A DNA stretch of 8,610 nucleotides from a virus (Duplodnaviria; Heunggongvirae; Uroviricota; Caudoviricetes), in the IMG/VR virus record IMGVR_UViG_2778261030_000017, positions 1-8,610 of that record, one strand, 5' to 3'. Position numbers and translations under genes: made by a program. Shown one piece after another: positions 918 to 8,610 of the stretch (position 1 is its first letter; each line of letters begins with the position of its first letter). The notes under the pieces are model-generated. The model worked only from the letters and a program-made list of their open reading frames with translations. It was not told the DNA's origin and ran no database searches.

Positions 918-1691
918 TTATATGCTGAAATGAATAATGCTATTCCAGAGTGCAGCAGAGAAAGTCTCCTGATGATTGAGCTCTGGAAATTGTACAATAG
1001 AAAAATTACTGTATTTTTCTGTCAAAATATTTCTCAAAACAGATTCCGCTTTGATGGCTTCAGGATATAAAGATGCGGAGTAATCAAGGCTAAGATTTCC
1101 GTTAAGCAAGCATATACTTTTAGTGTGCTTTGATTCTGATATATCATCTTTAATTATCTTGATGATTCTTTCATTCTGCCATAGAAGTGATGGTGCAGAT
1201 ATATAATAATAGTTAAAGCATGAATTATTTTTTAAGCAATCAAGCACAAAAATAGCACCTAGCGAGTGCCCCCATATACCGATTCTGGAACTGTTCGGAG
1301 CAATAGTACTAACCCATGGCATGATCTGAGTTAGTAATAATTCTCGGAAAGACTGGCTTCCTCCACCAGTAAAGTAGATCCATGCTGGTTTAGAGTTATC
1401 AACAATAGCATTTTCACCATCAGGAGTATAATCGTAAGCACGGCGATGAATGCTAAGGTTATTCCAAGATTCATAACCAAGTGTAACTAACACTGGTGGA
1501 TTGGGTAGTGCATCAATAACAGGCAGAATATCAGAAATGTAATTGTTGGCACTATTCCCATCAAGTATATAAAGAGTTGCATTATTTTTTTTAATGTTTT
1601 TTGGAGTAAAAATACATATTTTATATTTGGTGTCATGGTTAATTGAGTTAAATATGCGTGTTTGACAATGAATGTCCATATGTTTAGTCAT
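918..1691 (-). CDS. alpha/beta-hydrolase fold esterase (putative esterase family, serine hydrolase), 257 aa
   Basis: Minus-strand ORF with a GxSxG nucleophile motif (IGIWGHSLGAIF), an upstream YILDGN segment and a C-terminal His (FPELNHQ), consistent with a Ser-Asp-His triad. GGAG lies 5 nt upstream of the ATG on the minus strand (complement of 1697-1700). Very AT-rich relative to flanking DNA. No signal peptide evident. Confidence 0.75.
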   Translation of the reverse strand: MTKHMDIHCQTRIFNSINHDTKYKICIFTPKNIKKNNATLYILDGNSANNYISDILPVIDALPNPPVLVTLGYESWNNLSIHRRAYDYTPDGENAIVDNSKPAWIYFTGGGSQSFRELLLTQIMPWVSTIAPNSSRIGIWGHSLGAIFVLDCLKNNSCFNYYYISAPSLLWQNERIIKIIKDDISESKHTKSICLLNGNLSLDYSASLYPEAIKAESVLRNILTEKYSNFSIVQFPELNHQETFSAALWNSIIHFSI

Positions 1692-1873: not shown

Positions 1874-2169
1874 ATCGCTTGCTTAGGAAATTGAAGGCAG
1901 GTAACTATCATGTCAATGAACTAACCCACAGTCTAACGTACTTCTTTCCCCAATCACCAACAACCAAATTCCTGTTATCACCACTGGGATTTTGGCGCAA
2001 CTTCATGGTGCAGAGGTAAATAGCATCAAGCAAAATCTCTTTTTCCGTTGTTGTCCTTATGGGACGTCTGTCTTTCTGACCGATTTCATATTGGCGAGGT
2101 AATGGGAAGTTAAGTAGAATAGCTGCGGGTGCTTGAGGCTATCTGCCTCGGGCATGAACACCAACGGCA

Positions 2170-2250
2170 GATAGAGAAAAGCCCCAGTTAACATTACGCG
2201 TCCTGCAAGACGCTTAACATTAATCTGAGGCTCAATCCATGCTGAACACA
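2170..2250 (-). ncRNA. sok: predicted Sok-type antisense RNA region of the hok/mok locus (boundaries approximate)
   Basis: By analogy with hok/sok loci, the antisense RNA is made from the opposite strand across the mok start (ATG 2239). A candidate minus-strand promoter is TTGCCT, 17-nt spacer, TAACCT (complement of about 2254-2282). A minus-strand hairpin GCGTC-N6-GACGC lies further downstream. Exact ends are not determinable from sequence. Confidence 0.3.
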
Positions 2251-2451
2251 TGTAGGTTAGCCTCTTACGTGCCGAAAGGCAAGGAGAAGCAGGCTATGAA
2301 GCAGCAAAAGGCGATGTTAATCGCCCTGATCGTCATCTGTTTAACCGTCATAGTGACGGCACTGGTAACGAGGAAAGACCTCTGCGAGGTGCGAATCCGA
2401 ACCGGTCAGACGGAGGTCGCTGTCTTCGTAGACTACGAATCTGAGAAGTAA
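2239..2451 (+). CDS. mok: Mok (modulator of killing) reading frame, in-frame N-terminal extension of Hok
   Basis: ATG 2239 opens MLNTCRLASYVPKGKEKQA, which runs in frame into the Hok start. The MLNTCR beginning matches my recollection of MokC-type proteins. Confidence 0.55.
   Translation: MLNTCRLASYVPKGKEKQAMKQQKAMLIALIVICLTVIVTALVTRKDLCEVRIRTGQTEVAVFVDYESEK
2296..2451 (+). CDS. hok: Hok/Gef family type I toxin (51 aa membrane peptide), HokD/RelF-like
   Basis: Hand translation gives MKQQKAMLIALIVICLTVIVTALVTRKDLCEVRIRTGQTEVAVFVDYESEK: one transmembrane helix plus the conserved Hok C-terminal motif. A G-rich interrupted hairpin follows at about 2458-2485, as at hok mRNA 3' ends. Confidence 0.9.
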   Translation: MKQQKAMLIALIVICLTVIVTALVTRKDLCEVRIRTGQTEVAVFVDYESEK

Positions 2452-2570
2452 GAGACCAGGCGGGGGAGTAATCTCCCGCCACCTCTGATGTGTCAGGCAT
2501 CCTCAACGCACCCGCGCTTTACCATACTGAAAATGCTGTTTGAATGTTCATCTCTGAAAGAGGACTATGA

Positions 2571-2915
2571 ATGAAAAAGGTATTGATTGCAGCACTTATT
2601 TCCGGTGTGTCTTTTGGCGCTTTTGCACAGCAGGGTGGTTTCCAGGGGCCAGAAGCAGAGCGTTCAACAGTAGCGCAGGCAAAAGAACTGAAGGATGATG
2701 CATGGGTTATCCTTGAAGGGAGCATCGTTAAAAAAGTGGGTGATGAACGTTATGAGTTTCGTGACAATAGCGGGACAATTGTCACGGATATTGATGACAG
2801 CGTATGGGCCGGGCAGAATGTTTCTCCGAAAGACAAAGTAAGAATTGAGGGTGAAATTGATAAAGACCTGAGCAGTGTTGAAGTTGATGTAAAGGCACTG
2901 AAATTATTAAAGTAA
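2571..2915 (+). CDS. secreted OB-fold protein, YgiW/YdeI (BOF, DUF388) family, 114 aa
   Basis: N-terminal signal peptide MKKVLIAALISGVSFGAFA followed by QQGGFQGP. The mature part follows the YgiW-type pattern (KDDAWVILEGSIVKKVGDERYEFRDNSGTIVTDIDDSVW...KDKVRIEGEIDKD). RBS AGAGGA lies 6 nt upstream of the ATG. Confidence 0.85.
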   Translation: MKKVLIAALISGVSFGAFAQQGGFQGPEAERSTVAQAKELKDDAWVILEGSIVKKVGDERYEFRDNSGTIVTDIDDSVWAGQNVSPKDKVRIEGEIDKDLSSVEVDVKALKLLK

Positions 2916-2933
2916 CCGCCCCTGCTTGTTAAG

Positions 2934-2960
2934 CCCGTCTTACTGACGGGTTTTCTGTTT
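2934..2960 (+). terminator. rho-independent terminator after the YgiW-like gene
   Basis: CCCGTC (2934-2939), loop TTACT, GACGGG (2945-2950), then TTTTCTGTTT. Confidence 0.6.
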
Positions 2961-2987
2961 GTACATTCCGGCGTATTGCCTTACAAT
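2959..2987 (+). promoter_or_regulatory. candidate sigma70 promoter for the operon running from the 3037 ORF through DUF968, rusA and Q
   Basis: TTGTAC (2959-2964), 17-nt spacer, TACAAT (2982-2987), about 50 nt upstream of ATG 3037. Found by eye only. Confidence 0.3.
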
Positions 2988-3036
2988 TCGCGCAGTCAGC
3001 CTGAACAACTGACACCTGCTGTCACCGGAGAATCCG

Positions 3037-3309
3037 ATGACACAACACATAAAATCCCACAATTCTGAAGCCGACCCGGAAATTAAGCAGGGGAGGCGTT
3101 TTCGTGCGCCTCAGTATGGCTGGTTTCACTATCTGTTCTGTACGATCGATGAGGCAGATATGCTTCAAGAGGCGTATCTGCGTCGCGGTGTCCGTGTGGA
3201 GCGGAGTCTGAACGCTGATCGTCTGACCTGGACCGTTTCTGTATATCTTCCTGTTCGTGCACATCTGCCACGGACACATGCCTGCTACCGTCAGCGCGTC
3301 TGGAGGTAA
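3037..3309 (+). CDS. hypothetical protein (90 aa), translationally coupled to the DUF968 gene
   Basis: GGAG at 3027-3030 sits 6 nt before ATG 3037. The stop TAA 3307-3309 is followed by the GTG start of the next gene at 3311. Family not recognised. Confidence 0.5.
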   Translation: MTQHIKSHNSEADPEIKQGRRFRAPQYGWFHYLFCTIDEADMLQEAYLRRGVRVERSLNADRLTWTVSVYLPVRAHLPRTHACYRQRVWR

Positions 3310-3310
3310 T

Positions 3311-4360
3311 GTGCGGGTATTACTTCGACCTGTTCTGGTTCCGGAACTCGGGCTGGTGGTCCTTAAGCCCGGTCGTGAATCATTGCCAGTTTTTCATCGC
3401 GGCAGGGTGCTGGTGGAGCCGGAACCGAAAAACATGCGGGCGCTGCCATCTGGAGCGGTTCCTACTGTTCGCCAGCCGCTGGCGGAAGATAAATCACTGC
3501 TGCCATTTTTCAGCGATGAGCGGGTGATTCGTGCAGCTGGCGGCGCTGGTGCACTGTCTGACTGGTTATTACGTCACGTGAAATCCTGCCAGTGGCCACA
3601 CGGCGATTATCATCACAGCGAAACCGTTATTCACAGTTACGGTGCTGGCGCAATGGTGTTGTGCTGGCACTGCGACAACCAGCTGCGCGACCAGACCTCC
3701 GAATCACTTGAGCAACTTACTCAACAAAATCTGACAGCCTGGATGATTGACGTCATACGCCATGTAATGAATGGCACGCAGGAGCGGGAATTATCGCTGG
3801 CTGAATTATCCTGGTGGGCGGTCCGCAATCAGGTGGCGGACGCGCTACCGGAAGCGGTATTACGTCGTTCGCTGGGGTTGCGTGCGGAAAAAATCCGCTC
3901 AATGTACCGTGAAAGCGACATCATACCGGGAGAACAGACCGCCACCAGCATACTGAAGCAGCGCACAAAAAATATTGCGCTACCGCCTCACACCCACCAG
4001 CAACAGAACCCACCACAGGAAAAGACGGTGGTCAGCATTGCCGTTGATCCGGAGTCTCCGGAATCCTTCATGAAACGACCTAAACGTCGCCGCTGGGTAA
4101 ATGAGAAATACACACGCTGGGTAAAGACACAGCCGTGTGCGTGTTGTGGTAAGCCAGCGGACGATCCTCATCATCTGATTGGTCATGGTCAGGGTGGAAT
4201 GGGAACAAAATCCCACGATATTTTCACGCTACCGCTGTGTCGGGAGCATCACAACGAGCTTCATGCGGATCCGCTGGCGTTCGAAGAAAAGCATGGTTCC
4301 CAGGTTGATTTAATTTTTCGTTTTCTTGATCACGCCTTTGCAACCGGCGTGCTCGGGTAA
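3311..4360 (+). CDS. DUF968 family phage protein (YdfU-like) with a C-terminal Cys/His HNH-like zinc motif, 349 aa
   Basis: Start reassigned to GTG 3311 (RBS GGAGG 3302-3306, 4-nt spacing), giving (M)RVLLRPVLVPELGLVVLKPGRE... and a 349-aa product that fits my recollection of YdfU-like proteins. C-terminal motif CACCGKPADDPHHLIGHG...CREHHNELH. The ORF-track start at 3257 has no RBS. Confidence 0.85.
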   Translation: MRVLLRPVLVPELGLVVLKPGRESLPVFHRGRVLVEPEPKNMRALPSGAVPTVRQPLAEDKSLLPFFSDERVIRAAGGAGALSDWLLRHVKSCQWPHGDYHHSETVIHSYGAGAMVLCWHCDNQLRDQTSESLEQLTQQNLTAWMIDVIRHVMNGTQERELSLAELSWWAVRNQVADALPEAVLRRSLGLRAEKIRSMYRESDIIPGEQTATSILKQRTKNIALPPHTHQQQNPPQEKTVVSIAVDPESPESFMKRPKRRRWVNEKYTRWVKTQPCACCGKPADDPHHLIGHGQGGMGTKSHDIFTLPLCREHHNELHADPLAFEEKHGSQVDLIFRFLDHAFATGVLG

Positions 4361-4372
4361 AAGAGGTTACTG

Positions 4373-4744
4373 ATGCGTATAGAGTTTGTTTTGCTTTACC
4401 CGCCGACGGTGAACACCTACTGGCGACGTCGTGGCAGCACATATTTTGTATCAAAAGCCGGTGAGCGTTATCGCCGGGCTGTGGCGCTTATTGTTCGCCA
4501 GCAGCGGCTGAAATTAAGCCTGTCCGGAAGGCTGGCGATAAAGGTGATTGCAGAGCCACCGGATAAGCGCCGCCGTGACCTGGACAACATTCTGAAAGCA
4601 CCGCTGGATGCGCTGACGCATGCGGAAGTGCTCATTGATGACGAGCAGTTTGATGAAATCAATATTGTGCGCGGTCAGCCTGTGCCAGGTGGACGGCTGG
4701 GCGTGAAGATTTACGAAATCAGAGGTGGTAACGATGGCGCGTGA
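4373..4744 (+). CDS. rusA: RusA family Holliday-junction resolvase
   Basis: 123 aa with the RusA signature [39 protein letters not shown] lies 6 nt upstream of the ATG. Position between the DUF968 gene and Q is the usual nin-region place. Confidence 0.9.
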
Positions 4745-5105
4745 TATCCAGATGGTTCTTGAGCGATGGGGGGCATGGGCAGCAAATAATCATGAAGATG
4801 TAACATGGCCCTCGATAGCTGCTGGTTTTAAAGGATTAATCCCGACTAAAGTGAAATCACGTCCTAAGTGTTCTGATGATGACGCCATGATAATTTGTGG
4901 TTGTATGGCACGATTAAACAAGAATAATCAGTATTTGCACGATTTGTTGGTGGATTATTACGTAGGTGGAATGACATTTATGGCTCTTGCACGTAAGCAT
5001 AGATGTTCTGATGGGCTTATTGGTAAAAGGCTTTATAAAGCGGAAGGTATTATTGAAGGAATGCTTATGGCTCTGAATGTCCGGTTAGATATGGATATGC
5101 GGTAG
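4734..5105 (+). CDS. late-gene antiterminator Q (phage antitermination protein Q family, QuuD-like)
   Basis: [25 protein letters not shown]...[11 protein letters not shown]...[27 protein letters not shown] matches my recollection of QuuD/82-type Q proteins. Start ATG 4734 follows GAGGTGG and overlaps the rusA stop by 11 nt. The ORF-track start at 4725 is a GTG inside that RBS. Confidence 0.85.
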
Positions 5106-5196
5106 GGATATATAGTGATGAGGGTTATGTTTTCTGTGTTTATAATTAACATGTTTATTTTTTGATGGTCATGTATTGTGGAAGGTAGATAAAATG

Positions 5197-5225
5197 TTGC
5201 CTGGTGAATTGAAAATATTGATAAT
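5197..5225 (+). promoter_or_regulatory. candidate sigma70 promoter for the CPBP gene
   Basis: TTGCCT (5197-5202), 17-nt spacer, GATAAT (5220-5225), about 30 nt upstream of ATG 5257. A separate perfect TATAAT at 5141-5146 may belong to the phage late promoter, but I cannot assign it. Confidence 0.3.
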
Positions 5226-5256
5226 CAATCTTCATCATTAAATAAAAGGAGTGCTT

Positions 5257-6075
5257 ATGTGGATTGTGTTAGTACTGTCACTGTCAACTCTCAGTTGGCA
5301 TAAGGTAGTGGCTTTTTCATTGTTGACGGTGTCTGTTGTCCTGGCTGTGCTTAATGATATTATTGATTGGTCGGTGTTATTTTTTGTTGCTACAATCGTT
5401 TTTTTTATTATTTTGAAGTTCAACTGGAAATATAACGCCTGGGCTAAATCTATATATGAAGTTGGCATAGTTTTATCAGCCATAGCATTATCTTTCCATC
5501 TATGGCCAGGGTTTCACAATCCTGTAGTGCTAAATTCTGTTACTGTTGGCCCTCAAAGTACTCCCTATACAATGTATTTTAATTTTGATAAAGCGCTGGT
5601 GCCATTTTTGTTAGTCCTGTGTACATCTTCTTTGTTTAAAAAAGAAGTAAAATCAGAAGTGTCTTTGTGGAAGTGGGGGGCTCTGTCGCTCTCTGTTCCT
5701 CTTATCCTGTTTTTGGCTGTTTTTTTTGGTGGATTAAAGCCAGAGATTCATTTTCCTGAGTGGTTGCCAGAGTTTATATTGGCTAATTTGTTTTTTGTGT
5801 CTCTGGCAGAGGAATCATTATTTAGAGGGTATATTCAATCACGGCTATCAGAAGTAACGTCTCCATTGGTTGCATTAATTGTGGCGGCTTTGTTGTTTGG
5901 TTTTTATCACTATTCAGGTGGTGCTTTACTTGTATTATTTGCCACGTTATCTGGTGTTGTGTATGGATTGTCATGGATGTGGAGTGGGCGTTTGTGGGTT
6001 GCCACCCTTTTCCATTTTGGTTTGAATCTGTGTCACTTGTTATTCTTTACCTATCCATTTTTAAAACATAATTGA
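5257..6075 (+). CDS. CPBP family intramembrane metalloprotease (CAAX protease / Abi domain), polytopic membrane protein, 272 aa
   Basis: All three CPBP motifs are present in order: EExxxR (AEESLFRGY), FxxxH (FGFYHYS), HxxxN (HFGLNLCH). Multiple hydrophobic helices. Start placed at ATG 5257 because AAGGAG 5246-5251 sits 5 nt upstream (the ORF-track GTG at 5251 lies inside the RBS). Strongly AT-rich compared with the Q gene immediately upstream. Confidence 0.85.
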   Translation: MWIVLVLSLSTLSWHKVVAFSLLTVSVVLAVLNDIIDWSVLFFVATIVFFIILKFNWKYNAWAKSIYEVGIVLSAIALSFHLWPGFHNPVVLNSVTVGPQSTPYTMYFNFDKALVPFLLVLCTSSLFKKEVKSEVSLWKWGALSLSVPLILFLAVFFGGLKPEIHFPEWLPEFILANLFFVSLAEESLFRGYIQSRLSEVTSPLVALIVAALLFGFYHYSGGALLVLFATLSGVVYGLSWMWSGRLWVATLFHFGLNLCHLLFFTYPFLKHN

Positions 6076-6216
6076 TTTTTTCTATGGTTTTAAATTTATA
6101 AGACTGAAAAATAGCAGGACGTGACATTTGCATGAAAAATATGCACGGCAAAGCATTTACGTACGTAAAAAATCAGGTATGCTGTTAAGAGTGGTTATTT
6201 CGCCGCATAGCTTGAC

Positions 6217-6240
6217 CCCGCCTCTGAGCGGGTTTTTTGT
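6217..6240 (+). terminator. rho-independent terminator downstream of the CPBP gene
   Basis: CCCGC (6217-6221), loop CTCTGA, GCGGG (6228-6232), then TTTTTTGT. Confidence 0.6.
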
Positions 6241-6361
6241 GCCCGCAAAGTAGCGCAGTGCGTTAAATGTGCTGGTAGTTATTAATACAGGTCTTTCAGC
6301 TTGCTGGCTTTTTCGACAAGAGTTATTGGTGTGTCACGTTAACCGGAAAGGGTAAAAAGAC

Positions 6362-6601
6362 ATGCTGAAACAGCAGGATATGACAGAAACCGCCAGAGTT
6401 GTGTTTGATGAATTAAGCGTCACCGAACCGGCGACGGTCGGGGAGATTGCGCAGAATACGTACCTTTCACGCGAGCGCTGCCAGTTAATACTGACCCAGC
6501 TGGTTATGCGGGTCTGGCAGACTATCAGTTCGGTTGTTACAGACGCCTTCAGTCCTGAAGGCTTTTTTATTTGTGGTAAATGGGCGGCTGGTGGGTGTTA
6601 G
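6362..6601 (+). CDS. questionable small ORF (79 aa, possible small HTH protein); may instead be non-coding late-leader RNA
   Basis: The ORF has backbone-like GC and a segment that could be a helix-turn-helix (TVGEIAQNTYLSRERCQLILTQL). Its last 57 nt contain a strong intrinsic terminator (6545-6570) upstream of the stop, and the RBS is weak. Coding status doubtful. Confidence 0.3.
   Translation: MLKQQDMTETARVVFDELSVTEPATVGEIAQNTYLSRERCQLILTQLVMRVWQTISSVVTDAFSPEGFFICGKWAAGGC
6545..6570 (+). terminator. strong rho-independent terminator (candidate tR'-like late-leader terminator)
   Basis: GCCTTCA (6545-6551), loop GTCC, TGAAGGC (6556-6562), then TTTTTTATTT. Perfect 7-bp stem. Confidence 0.6.
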
Positions 6602-6629
6602 CGGCACCTGTCAGTCCTTTGCTTATGTG

Positions 6630-6660
6630 TTGATGATAATTTACCTTTTGGGGCTATAAT
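6630..6660 (+). promoter_or_regulatory. candidate promoter for the AraC-family gene
   Basis: TTGATG (6630-6635), 19-nt spacer (longer than optimal), perfect TATAAT (6655-6660), about 35 nt upstream of ATG 6696. Confidence 0.3.
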
Positions 6661-6695
6661 TGAACTAACCAATTGCTAATGAAAGTAAAATTATA

Positions 6696-7409
6696 ATGGT
6701 TGTTGTCTGTTCAGTTATCATGGTTTGCTCCCCAATTAATATTTTTCTTGAAAAGGATACGTTGTCACTTAAGCCCGGCTCAGTCGTTCTGGCCACCAAA
6801 TGCATCAGGGCGCTTTTCCTTATGCATTATGGCAAAGTTAAAATTTTCGATATAAACCATTCCATAGTAAGTCAATATCTGGAAATTCAGCATAAGCTGA
6901 CAAGAACTCATCTGACTGACGTTCCGCTTTATCTGTCACTGGAACCCAACAACCCTGCGTTGGCTGAGGCTTTAATTACCAGCCAGAGATTTTCCGGAGA
7001 TACCACGGATATGTTTCTTATGATGGCATGCCTGTCGCTGTTTGAATCAGATGAACGGATATTATTATTTTTAAGTGGATGTTTATCCAGTATAAGTGCC
7101 AAAGTCAGGGCGATAATTCAGACAGATATATCAGCAAGCTGGACGCTTGGTGCGATTGCGTTACGCCTGCATATGAGTGAGAGTTTGTTAAAGATAAAAC
7201 TGAAAAATGAAGGGCACATGTTCAGTCGCTTGTTGCTGGAAGAGCGGATGCGTGTTGCTGTCAATATGTTATGTTCCCGGCATGGATATGGACAGGCTGT
7301 AGCAGAAAAATGCGGTTATTCAAGCTGGTCCTACTTTATTTCTGTATTTCACCGCTATTATGGCTTCCCGCCAGACAGATATGTATCCAGGCAAGGGCTT
7401 GATTATTGA
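6696..7409 (+). CDS. AraC/XylS family transcriptional regulator, small GadX/YdeO/AppY-like type (resembles prophage-encoded PatE/Psr-type regulators)
   Basis: 237 aa. The C-terminal about 100 aa show the AraC double-HTH pattern (WTLGAIALRLHMSESLLKIKLKNEGHMFSRLLLEERMRVAVNMLCSRHGYGQAVAEKCGYSSWSYFISVFHRYYGFPPDRY). The N-terminus MVVVCSVIMVC resembles AppY-type proteins as I recall them. AT-rich island; weak RBS, start could alternatively be ATG 6720. Confidence 0.85.
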   Translation: MVVVCSVIMVCSPINIFLEKDTLSLKPGSVVLATKCIRALFLMHYGKVKIFDINHSIVSQYLEIQHKLTRTHLTDVPLYLSLEPNNPALAEALITSQRFSGDTTDMFLMMACLSLFESDERILLFLSGCLSSISAKVRAIIQTDISASWTLGAIALRLHMSESLLKIKLKNEGHMFSRLLLEERMRVAVNMLCSRHGYGQAVAEKCGYSSWSYFISVFHRYYGFPPDRYVSRQGLDY

Positions 7410-7437
7410 TTTTCATCTGATTATTATTTTTTGACCC

Positions 7438-7513
7438 GGCCCTTTAGCTCAGTGGTGAGAGCGAGCGACTCATAATCGCCAGGTCGCTGGTTCAAATCCA
7501 GCAAGGGCCACCA
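7438..7513 (+). tRNA. ileZ: tRNA with CAT anticodon, Ile2 (lysidine-type, ileX/ileZ-like) rather than Met
   Basis: 76-nt cloverleaf folded by hand: acceptor GGCCCTT/AAGGGCC, D-arm GCTC-AGTGGTGA-GAGC, anticodon loop CTCATAA, T-arm GCTGG-TTCAAAT-CCAGC, discriminator A, encoded CCA. Closely resembles E. coli ileX as I recall it. Confidence 0.85.
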
Positions 7514-7520
7514 TCACATA

Positions 7521-7597
7521 CCGCCATTAGCTCATCAGGAAAGAGCGCCAGCTTTCGAAGCTGGTTGCGCGGAGTTCGGGTCCCCGAAGGCGGTCCA
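7521..7597 (+). tRNA. argN: tRNA-Arg (anticodon TCG), divergent and possibly a weak or pseudo-tRNA
   Basis: 77-nt fold with anticodon stem CCAGC/GCTGG and loop TTTCGAA (anticodon TCG), and a canonical D-arm. The acceptor stem has one A-A mismatch, the T-stem one A-C mismatch, and the T-loop is TTCGGGT instead of TTCRANT. Gene symbol assigned by position in the Stx-phage trio only. Confidence 0.55.
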
Positions 7598-7610
7598 TTA
7601 TCTGTATCCT

Positions 7611-7687
7611 GCGTTGTTAGCTCAGCCGGACAGAGCAATTGCCTTCTAAGCAATCGGTCACTGGTTCGAATCCAGTACAACGCGCCA
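7611..7687 (+). tRNA. argO: tRNA-Arg (anticodon TCT, reads AGA)
   Basis: 77-nt cloverleaf: acceptor GCGTTGT/ACAACGC, D-arm GCTC-AGCCGGACA-GAGC, anticodon stem ATTGC/GCAAT with loop CTTCTAA, T-arm ACTGG-TTCGAAT-CCAGT, discriminator G, CCA. Confidence 0.85.
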
Positions 7688-7701
7688 CACTTATTTTCCC
7701 T

Positions 7702-7727
7702 GGCTCGCTTTTGCGGGCCTTTTTTTT
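7702..7727 (+). terminator. rho-independent terminator directly after the tRNA cluster
   Basis: GGCTCGC (7702-7708), loop TTTT, GCGGGCC (7713-7719; one U-G wobble), then T8 (7720-7727). Confidence 0.6.
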
Positions 7728-7923
7728 AAATGTCTCACAATTCAGGCGGTTGACTGTTGTCTGGTTTGCGGGGAGTTTGTTAAAAGAAACTGGCATGGTG
7801 AATCCCCCTGTGCGGAGGGGCAATCAGCGAGTAGGTATATGGGATAATCGCGGATTCAGGTGCTGGTACTGAATTCACCGGGAGGCACCCGGCACCATGC
7901 AATGGCACATAGCGCCACTCTCC

Positions 7924-7950
7924 AGCCCCTCTCCGGAGGGGCTTTCTTAT
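7924..7950 (+). terminator. terminator-like hairpin (+ strand)
   Basis: AGCCCCTC (7924-7931), loop TCCG, GAGGGGCT (7936-7943), perfect 8-bp stem, followed by TTCTTAT. Confidence 0.45.
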
Positions 7951-7954
7951 GGAC

Positions 7955-7983
7955 AAAAAAAGCCCGCGCAGGGAGACGCGGGC
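7955..7983 (-). terminator. terminator-like hairpin oriented for the minus strand
   Basis: GCCCGCG (7962-7968), loop CAGGGAGA, CGCGGGC (7977-7983), preceded on the + strand by A7 (7955-7961), which is a T7 run after the hairpin on the minus strand. No convincing minus-strand gene upstream of it in this window. Confidence 0.35.
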
Positions 7984-8051
7984 GGCAAGGAATAAACAAC
8001 AAAACGTGAAGTAATATTTCAGCTGGCGAATAATATCCGACAGTAATCACT

Positions 8052-8074
8052 CTGCGCAATAGCGCGGCCTTTTT
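8052..8074 (+). terminator. terminator-like hairpin upstream of the NanS-p-like gene
   Basis: CTGCGC (8052-8057), loop AATA, GCGCGG (8062-8067; one U-G wobble), then CC and TTTTT (8070-8074). Confidence 0.35.
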
Positions 8075-8176
8075 CGTATTGCGGGCTGTTGTCTCTCTTC
8101 TGCCATTGTCCTGTAACTTCCGGACTTCAGCCCGCTCCTCATTTTACTCACAATATTATCCCGGCCGGGAGGATTC

Positions 8177-8610
8177 ATGGCATTTAAACACTATGATGTT
8201 GTCAGGGCGGCGTCGCCGTCAGACCTTGCGGAAAAGCTGACACACAAACTGAAAGAGGGCTGGCAGCCATACGGCGGACCGGTTGCCATTACGCCGTACA
8301 CACTGATGCAGGCGGTGGCTATTGAAGGAGATCCACAGGTCGGCCCTTCATCTAAGCCGGACTGGTTCTACGTGGTTGTGCTTGCCGGACAGTCCAACGG
8401 CATGGCCTACGGTGAAGGGCTTCCGTTACCGGATTCTTACGATGCTCCGGATCCGCGCATTAAACAGCTGGCGCGCCGCAGCACGGTAACTCCGGGTGGA
8501 GAGAGTTGTACGTATAACGACATCATTCCGGCTGACCACTGCCTGCATGATGTGCAGGATATGAGTACGCTGAATCATCCGAAGGCAGACCTGAGCAAAG
8601 GGCAGTACGG
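8177..8610 (+). CDS. nanS-p: 5' part of a NanS-p-like 9-O-acetyl sialate esterase (DUF1737 N-domain followed by an SGNH/SASA hydrolase domain); continues beyond the window
   Basis: RBS GGGAGG (8167-8172) 4 nt before ATG 8177. Hand translation MAFKHYDVVRAASPSDLAEKLTHKLKEGWQPYGGPVAITPYTLMQAVAIEG..., then FYVVVLAGQSNGMAYGEG carrying the SGNH-type GQSN catalytic-serine block. This matches my memory of the gene found just downstream of stx in Stx phages. Confidence 0.8.
   Translation, partial: MAFKHYDVVRAASPSDLAEKLTHKLKEGWQPYGGPVAITPYTLMQAVAIEGDPQVGPSSKPDWFYVVVLAGQSNGMAYGEGLPLPDSYDAPDPRIKQLARRSTVTPGGESCTYNDIIPADHCLHDVQDMSTLNHPKADLSKGQY

Follow-up and report, generated by a model that had tools for sequence, protein, structure and literature searches.

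The regulator gene psrA, listed as z1789 of EDL933, was reportedly described in 2011 by Tree et al. with a role in acid resistance and type III secretion. [quoted passage not shown] PsrA also contributes to persistence in sheep (PMC10877973, PMC8565820). PsrB, for which 90% identity to PsrA has been published, is encoded by z2104 in OI-57 together with nleG2-3, nleG6-2, and nleG5-2 (PMC10877973, PMC8565820). Direct binding of PsrB to the gadE and hdeA promoters and an increase in acid survival have been reported, deletion of psrB alone having little effect on secretion (PMC10877973). Activation of gadE and hdeAB has been reported for PatE (PMC10877973). Upon manipulation of the sRNA HnrS, the expression of psrA and that of gadE move together, and changes in psrA expression have been reported in strain Sakai (PMC13502914).

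Identification of the regulator gene as psrA

The stretch of 8,610 nucleotides analyzed here, referred to as the window, corresponds to the junction between the early and late regions of a lambdoid prophage. The gene under study and its DNA-binding region are located as follows.

6696..7409, plus strand: psrA coding sequence, 237 aa plus the stop codon (open reading frame list, Pfam and NCBIfam matches)
7095..7394, plus strand: part of psrA that codes for the AraC/XylS DNA-binding domain, residues ~134-233 (phmmer match to 3mkl, Foldseek, pLDDT)

This gene is psrA, a known prophage-borne AraC-type regulator gene of EHEC; it is real, intact, and not new. Read from the upstream ATG, its product is 100% identical over 237 aa to ECs1087 of the Sakai prophage Sp4, which is named "psrA (ecs1087, Sp4)" in a 2026 paper from the laboratory (Tree) that described the Psr proteins (PMC13502914). 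In resequenced EDL933, the same protein (WP_000261909.1) is encoded by the yccA-adjacent prophage, i.e., at the CP-933M position. The gene order of Sakai Sp4 is that of the window (DUF968, RusA, Q, CPBP protease, TrmB-like open reading frame, psrA, ileZ-argN-argO, and esterase), with ECs_1087, annotated as "AraC-family transcriptional regulator", just before ileZ1-argN1-argO1 and pchA ~4 kb downstream. The psrA gene itself is the same in the window and in Sp4, but the prophage around it is a mosaic variant. A pch gene is located downstream of each Sakai copy, namely pchA downstream of psrA on Sp4 and pchB downstream of the Sp11 gene; the window stops short of the pch position. The effector genes of Sp11 are exactly the nleG2-3, nleG6-2, and nleG5-2 set of OI-57. 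The prophage location and the linkage with pch regulators and effector loci are thus those of a Psr gene.

The Sp11 copy, ECs2191 (PsrB), has the same length as PsrA and is 90.7% identical to it, with 22 amino acid differences, so that the relationship expected of a Psr protein (~90% identity to PsrB) is found at the sequence level. The psrB gene occupies the same slot just upstream of ileZ and has the same promoter-like element as psrA, but it is preceded by a different Q gene and argN is absent. PatE (z0321 in OI-8; ECs_0287 on Sp1 of Sakai) resembles PsrA in being a prophage-borne AraC-type protein with a two-domain layout and the same N-terminal motif. It is a protein of 247 aa, and its gene is located terminally in a degraded prophage and not in the Q-to-tRNA slot occupied by psrA. 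Comparison of the window protein with the regulators singled out in an earlier note on this DNA gave identities of 100% (PsrA), 90.7% (PsrB), 37% (PatE), 35% (GadW), 31% (YdeO), and 29% (AppY), the last four over full-chain alignments. The proposal of that note, a lysogenic-conversion regulator of the PatE and Psr kind, was essentially correct; the gene being the already studied psrA, the finding is correct but not new. It carries little weight as a discovery, as the publication of psrA and of its role in linking prophage carriage with acid resistance and type III secretion dates from 2011, and several reviews have followed.

A psr-type gene was present in 726 of 5,426 complete E. coli genomes; the copy number had a median of two and reached four at most, and 504 of these 726 genomes carried the window allele at an identity of at least 99%. 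A segment of 1.64 kb around psrA was 100% identical in many EHEC chromosomes, O103 and O157:H7 alike. The product is labeled only "helix-turn-helix domain-containing protein" in RefSeq, its PHROGs family is of "unknown function", and an exact-sequence cluster look-up for the window protein returned generic names only and no locus tags. For annotators, the present analysis may be useful with respect to these generic RefSeq and PHROGs names, the late starts of the Sakai models, and the mismatch in the OI-50/CP-933N placement (see below for both).

Domain architecture and relationship to other AraC-type regulators

In PsrA, a short N-terminal beta/alpha domain (residues ~1-105) of the GadW/YdeO/AppY/PatE type is joined by a helical linker to a C-terminal double helix-turn-helix (HTH) domain of the AraC type. 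The C-terminal portion matched the Pfam families HTH_18 (residues 155-230; 36.6 bits, cut-off of 33.6) and HTH_AraC (35.3 bits, cut-off of 26.6). [quoted passage not shown] The closest solved structure, both by sequence and by fold, was the DNA-binding domain of GadX (3mkl; phmmer, E value of 1.5e-18, PsrA residues 134-233), and the modeled C-terminal domain of PsrA superposed on it with a TM score of 0.90, an rmsd of 1.6 A, and 42% identity (Foldseek). The mean pLDDT of the AlphaFold model was 72, with values of 80-93 in the DNA-binding half and only moderate confidence in the N-terminal beta-rich part.

Both HTH units of PsrA were complete and aligned without gaps with those of GadX, GadW, YdeO, and AppY. 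The earlier note had called the gene a 237-aa AraC/XylS regulator, and the open reading frame at 6696-7409 on the plus strand, with its complete double HTH, bears this out, the coordinates being accurate. A truncated or inactive HTH, which the same note took as counting against its interpretation, was not seen, as indicated by the gap-free alignment of both units and the superposition of the modeled domain on GadX. The dN/dS ratios between the psrA, psrB, and Stx2k-phage alleles were 0.22-0.43, and psrA is, as judged from these comparisons, intact and under purifying selection.

Assignment to the GadX/YdeO/AppY size class was also sound, since the whole PsrA chain aligned with GadW, YdeO, and AppY. 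GadX differs in having a longer N terminus that does not align with PsrA, only the DNA-binding domain being close. All four of these E. coli K-12 regulators (GadW, YdeO, AppY, and GadX) converge on gadE. Among the NCBIfam models, that for YdeO gave the best match over the whole length and that for GadX came next, but the scores of PsrA remained far below the equivalog cut-offs of both, YdeO (NF007407; residues 1-229, 104.1 bits versus 348) and GadX (NF007432; C-terminal half only, 88.5 bits versus 500). By sequence, PsrA is therefore of the GadW/YdeO/AppY size class but an equivalog of no K-12 member.

The best whole-chain Foldseek matches were the small virulence regulators of the AraC type Rns, CsvR, and ToxT (E values of about 1e-8), in which, as in PsrA, an N-terminal beta-rich domain precedes the AraC domain. 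The identity to these proteins was 13-22% and the TM score was about 0.4, the domain arrangement being different or poorly modeled. The N-terminal domain of PsrA is shorter than that of Rns, CsvR, and ToxT, and a fatty-acid pocket was not indicated.

Predicted action of PsrA on the host

We consider, with a probability of about 0.9, that the window contains psrA as a small cassette within the late-regulatory part of a lambdoid EHEC prophage resembling Sp4/CP-933M and that the effect of PsrA on the host is exerted via GadE and YhiF. In the proposed mechanism, the two HTH units of PsrA would bind AT-rich sites upstream of gadE, and PsrA would activate gadE transcription as does the GadX/GadW/YdeO/AppY group. 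Direct activation of gadE by binding, as for PsrB, AppY, and the Gad regulators, is suggested by the 90.7% identity to PsrB and by family membership. The raised levels of GadE and YhiF would lead to repression of the LEE, and type III secretion would fall.

A possible but less favored variant assigns to PsrA a primary role in acid resistance, with direct activation of gadE and hdeAB, as for PsrB and PatE, and repression of type III secretion merely downstream. PsrB, the 90.7% identical close paralog encoded by Sp11, is the reported binder of the hdeA and gadE promoters that raises acid survival, and AppY, PatE, and PsrB all feed the AR2 system. This variant shifts the emphasis more than it competes with the main reading, since both outputs run through GadE; furthermore, secretion is altered by deletion of psrA and not of psrB, and PsrA aids persistence in sheep (PMC10877973, PMC8565820).

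Translation start of psrA

The Sakai gene models ECs_1087 and ECs_2191 are 195 aa long and start at Met43 (ATG at position 6822 of the window). The N terminus read from the ATG at position 6696 contains the motif MxxVCSVI, which is common to PsrA, PsrB, PatE, GadW, YdeO, and AppY; this conservation supports the upstream start. Thus, the Sakai models of ECs1087 and ECs2191 probably start 42 codons (126 nt; window positions 6696-6821) too late, as judged from the alignments.

The opposite view, that the functional product is the 195-aa protein initiated at Met43 (ATG 6822) and that the first 42 codons are an untranslated leader, is improbable. The downstream start is used in the Sakai annotation, 195 aa is the length given in many database entries, and direct reading of the sequence revealed a clear Shine-Dalgarno motif before neither ATG. 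However, residues 1-42 align with the N termini of PatE, GadW, YdeO, and AppY, including MxxVCSVI and the first beta-strands, and the NCBIfam YdeO model match begins at residue 1. The RefSeq PGAP call is also 237 aa. In three alleles (psrA, psrB, and Stx2k phage), codons 1-42 are uninterrupted and hardly vary, and they stay open in homologues down to 40% identity, and the structural model places four beta-strands in residues 5-34.

A swappable cassette between a terminator-like hairpin and the phage tRNAs

The features surrounding psrA, read as the 237-aa form, are the following.

4725..5105, plus strand: Q-family antiterminator gene (Pfam Phage_antitermQ, E value of 8.7e-52; RefSeq "antiterminator Q family protein")
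6217..6238, plus strand: terminator-like hairpin, CCCGC-loop-GCGGG followed by T6 (the "late terminator" of the earlier note)
6362..6601, plus strand: small TrmB-like open reading frame, frameshifted according to RefSeq, matching phrog_331 and accompanying the slot
6631..7434: swappable cassette (moron slot) of 804 bp, comprising the promoter-like element and psrA, delimited by homology breakpoints relative to the Stx2a phage WGPS2
6633..6660, plus strand: sigma-70 promoter-like element, ATGATA-16 nt-TATAAT, ~36 nt before the ATG, with 10 of 12 consensus matches
7438..7687, plus strand: phage tRNA genes ileZ (cat), argN (tcg), and argO (tct) (ARAGORN, Rfam, and ileZ1/argN1/argO1 of Sakai)
7702..7727, plus strand: terminator-like hairpin with T8 right after argO, the first strong site of this type downstream of psrA

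The GC content was 42.3% for psrA and 34% for the 94-nt leader (6602-6695), compared to 51% for the TrmB-like open reading frame upstream and ~51% for the tRNA region. The "AT-rich island" described in the earlier note is therefore real in having a low GC content but moderate in degree (42.3% and 34% versus flanks of ~51%); two other low-GC blocks precede it in the window, at ~450-2100 and 4800-6300, which makes it the third and not the second. The gene does not sit quite alone, as had been stated, since the frameshifted TrmB-like open reading frame (6362-6601) is located between the terminator and psrA; its position between the terminator-like hairpin and the tRNAs holds.

In the Stx2a phage WGPS2, homology to the window was found at 6160-6630 and 7435-7728, with a DNA methylase gene between these segments in place of psrA. 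Sequence comparison thus defines psrA as the cargo of a moron in the sense of a discrete, replaceable insert with a base composition unlike that of its flanks. Regarding the promoter and terminator that a moron may have of its own, a promoter-like consensus match was present in three cassettes, and a strong terminator-like site was present only after the tRNAs. The Stx2k phage phiSTEC1575 carries a 237-aa psr allele (6479-7192 of the phage locus) that is 89% identical to PsrA and 92% identical to PsrB. This allele lies between the antiterminator gene and the tRNAs, with stx2k immediately after. A Psr-type regulator can therefore ride on a toxin-converting phage (phiSTEC1575-Stx2k) and not only on cryptic effector prophages. 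The TrmB-like open reading frame of the window is 73% identical to its Sp11 equivalent; it is intact in the Stx2k phage (73 aa), has 65 aa in Sp11, and is always ahead of the cargo slot.

Transcription signals and possible coupling to late transcription

The element ATGATA-16-TATAAT (6633-6660) was the best promoter-like site in 4700-8300, as a match to the consensus only. It is identical in the psrB cassette of Sp11; in the Stx2k-phage cassette, the -10 hexamer is identical and the -35 hexamer differs by one base (ATGAGA). The "perfect TATAAT upstream" of the earlier note occupies 6655-6660, and the ATG is overlapped by another copy at 6692-6697. The hexamer was rejected as stand-alone evidence, as it occurs 6 times in the window versus 6.24 times expected by chance; it is notable only in combination with the -35-like ATGATA.

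The terminator-like hairpin with its T-run at 6217-6238 accounts for the "late terminator" of that note, and its identity as tR' is what we infer. Lambdoid prophages that differ in their Q genes share a conserved block that starts at this place (6217 in the comparison with the Stx2k phage and 6228 with Sp11), as expected if a promoter specific for Q is followed by this hairpin as a tR'-like site. Consensus scanning for PR' gave candidates just after Q (5166-5238), none of which was assignable, and nothing convincing in 6076-6216. Two weaker terminator-like sites (6545-6562 and 6586-6616) are located in or just after the TrmB-like open reading frame. The tRNA cluster begins 28 nt after the stop codon of psrA; its first member, called Met(cat) by ARAGORN, is ileZ/tRNA-Ile in the reference genomes. 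No convincing terminator was found between psrA and ileZ, the sole call (7388-7401) being a 5-bp stem without a T-run that overlaps the last codons of psrA.

In the lysogen, psrA would be expressed from its own putative promoter. Upon induction, additional read-through from the Q-dependent late promoter may occur, in line with the coupling to late transcription that the earlier note proposed from the position upstream of the tRNAs. The Q gene lies 1.6 kb upstream of psrA on the same strand of the same prophage, and psrA shares its strand with Q and the late genes, a layout compatible with late read-through. In the Stx2k phage, the psr allele is likewise found between Q and the toxin genes. Since psrA is carried by the late strand, downstream of Q and upstream of the tRNAs, and no convincing terminator precedes the tRNAs, prophage induction might result in a burst of PsrA synthesis from the late transcript modified by Q, a proposal that we regard as tentative and rather unlikely; our search for psrA expression data after induction found none. 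If the proposal is true, induced cells that are soon to lyse would, while making toxin, turn on acid resistance via GadE and turn off type III secretion. It would also establish a regulatory link between induction and the host program that is absent from the literature consulted.

The placement of psrA between Q and the tRNAs, in the region of late regulation, together with that of the Stx2k-phage allele directly upstream of stx2k, might also be taken to mean that PsrA mainly regulates the phage itself (for example, late genes, tRNAs, or the neighboring toxin or esterase genes) and that the host effects are side effects of overexpression. This is very improbable, since Stx2a phages swap the slot for an unrelated methylase gene while keeping the flanking functions, the closest relatives of PsrA all act on the acid fitness island, and reviews attribute the phenotypes of deletion and complementation to GadE/YhiF and the LEE (PMC10877973, PMC8565820, PMC4456613). 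Although psrA is AT rich, and hence a likely H-NS target, its TrmB-like neighbor is frameshifted, and Sp4-type prophages contain IS insertions, it is scarcely credible that it is a silent remnant of a defective prophage with no current function, since the gene is intact, under purifying selection, and widely kept, and changes in its expression have been reported in Sakai (PMC13502914).

Location of psrA in EDL933

Reviews place psrA at z1789, in OI-50/CP-933N (PMC10877973, PMC8565820). The potC-potB prophage of resequenced EDL933 (NZ_CP008957.1), which carries the OI-50 effector genes nleL, espN, and espK, contained no psr homologue, and none was found in Sakai Sp6, the equivalent of the OI-50 prophage, or in Sp8, Sp10, and Sp14. 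In resequenced EDL933 and in Sakai, psrA is thus located in CP-933M/Sp4 and not in OI-50/CP-933N, which affects the reading of the phenotypes of whole-island (OI-50) deletions.

The sRNA EvrS provides a landmark for comparison of the assemblies. Its published map position is 1,641,353 of the original EDL933 sequence, with z1789 on one side and the esterase gene z1793 on the other, and the published extent of OI-50 is 1,626,570-1,673,884. EvrS is therefore offset by 14,783 bp into OI-50, compared to 13,369 bp for the corresponding site of the resequenced prophage. Swapping the RusA-to-sRNA segment (1,630 bp) for one of the window type (3,061 bp) predicts an offset of 14,800 bp, compared to the 14,783 bp published. 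From these offsets, CP-933N of the original EDL933 assembly seems to have included a window-type segment, which in later assemblies is confined to CP-933M/Sp4. The agreement between 14,800 and 14,783 bp would explain the conflict as an assembly difference, short of proof.

The window contains a candidate for the same sRNA.

7764-7954, plus strand: match to the STnc100 sRNA (Rfam, 138 bits; gathering score of 47), between the tRNAs and the esterase gene

This match is probably the published EvrS, as judged from its position (z1789-z1793) and size (154 nt); the EvrS paper makes no mention of STnc100. The match ends at a hairpin (7924-7943), and a strong terminator-like hairpin on the minus strand abuts at 7983-7962. 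HnrS was also considered as an sRNA of the window and was rejected, as it is located on Sp9, Sp10, and Sp12.

Mosaicism and other genes of the window

The remaining annotated features are as follows.

918-1691, minus strand: alpha/beta hydrolase gene, with a weak Pfam Esterase match below the cut-off; phrog_8493, unknown function
2127-2301, plus strand: hok/sok module, sok antitoxin RNA (Rfam, 113.5 bits); a hokD toxin open reading frame is annotated at the equivalent place in the reference genomes
2571-2915: gene for a BOF (bacterial OB-fold) protein
3257-4360: DUF968 gene
4373-4744: RusA gene
5251-6075, plus strand: gene for a CPBP (Rce1-like/Abi) intramembrane protease; phrog_13291, unknown function

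Outside 2524-3298, the window was ~98.4-98.9% identical to Sp4. The segment 2524-3298, which includes the BOF gene, is absent from Sakai Sp4 and EDL933 CP-933M, where 363 bp are found instead, and is present in Sp11 at 98% identity, indicating that the prophage of the window is a mosaic. No complete genome of the collection covered more than 91% of the window in a single place.

The hok/sok sequence at 2127-2301 is an ordinary prophage module. The first AT-rich block contains the alpha/beta hydrolase gene (34.5% GC). The possibility that this gene and the PatE-adjacent gene of equal length on Sp1 mark a common module of a hydrolase and an AraC-type gene was dropped, since tblastn revealed no similarity. 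The CPBP protease gene (38% GC) is a second AT-rich cargo gene; it fills the space between Q and the hairpin, where Sp11 and the Stx phages do not have it.
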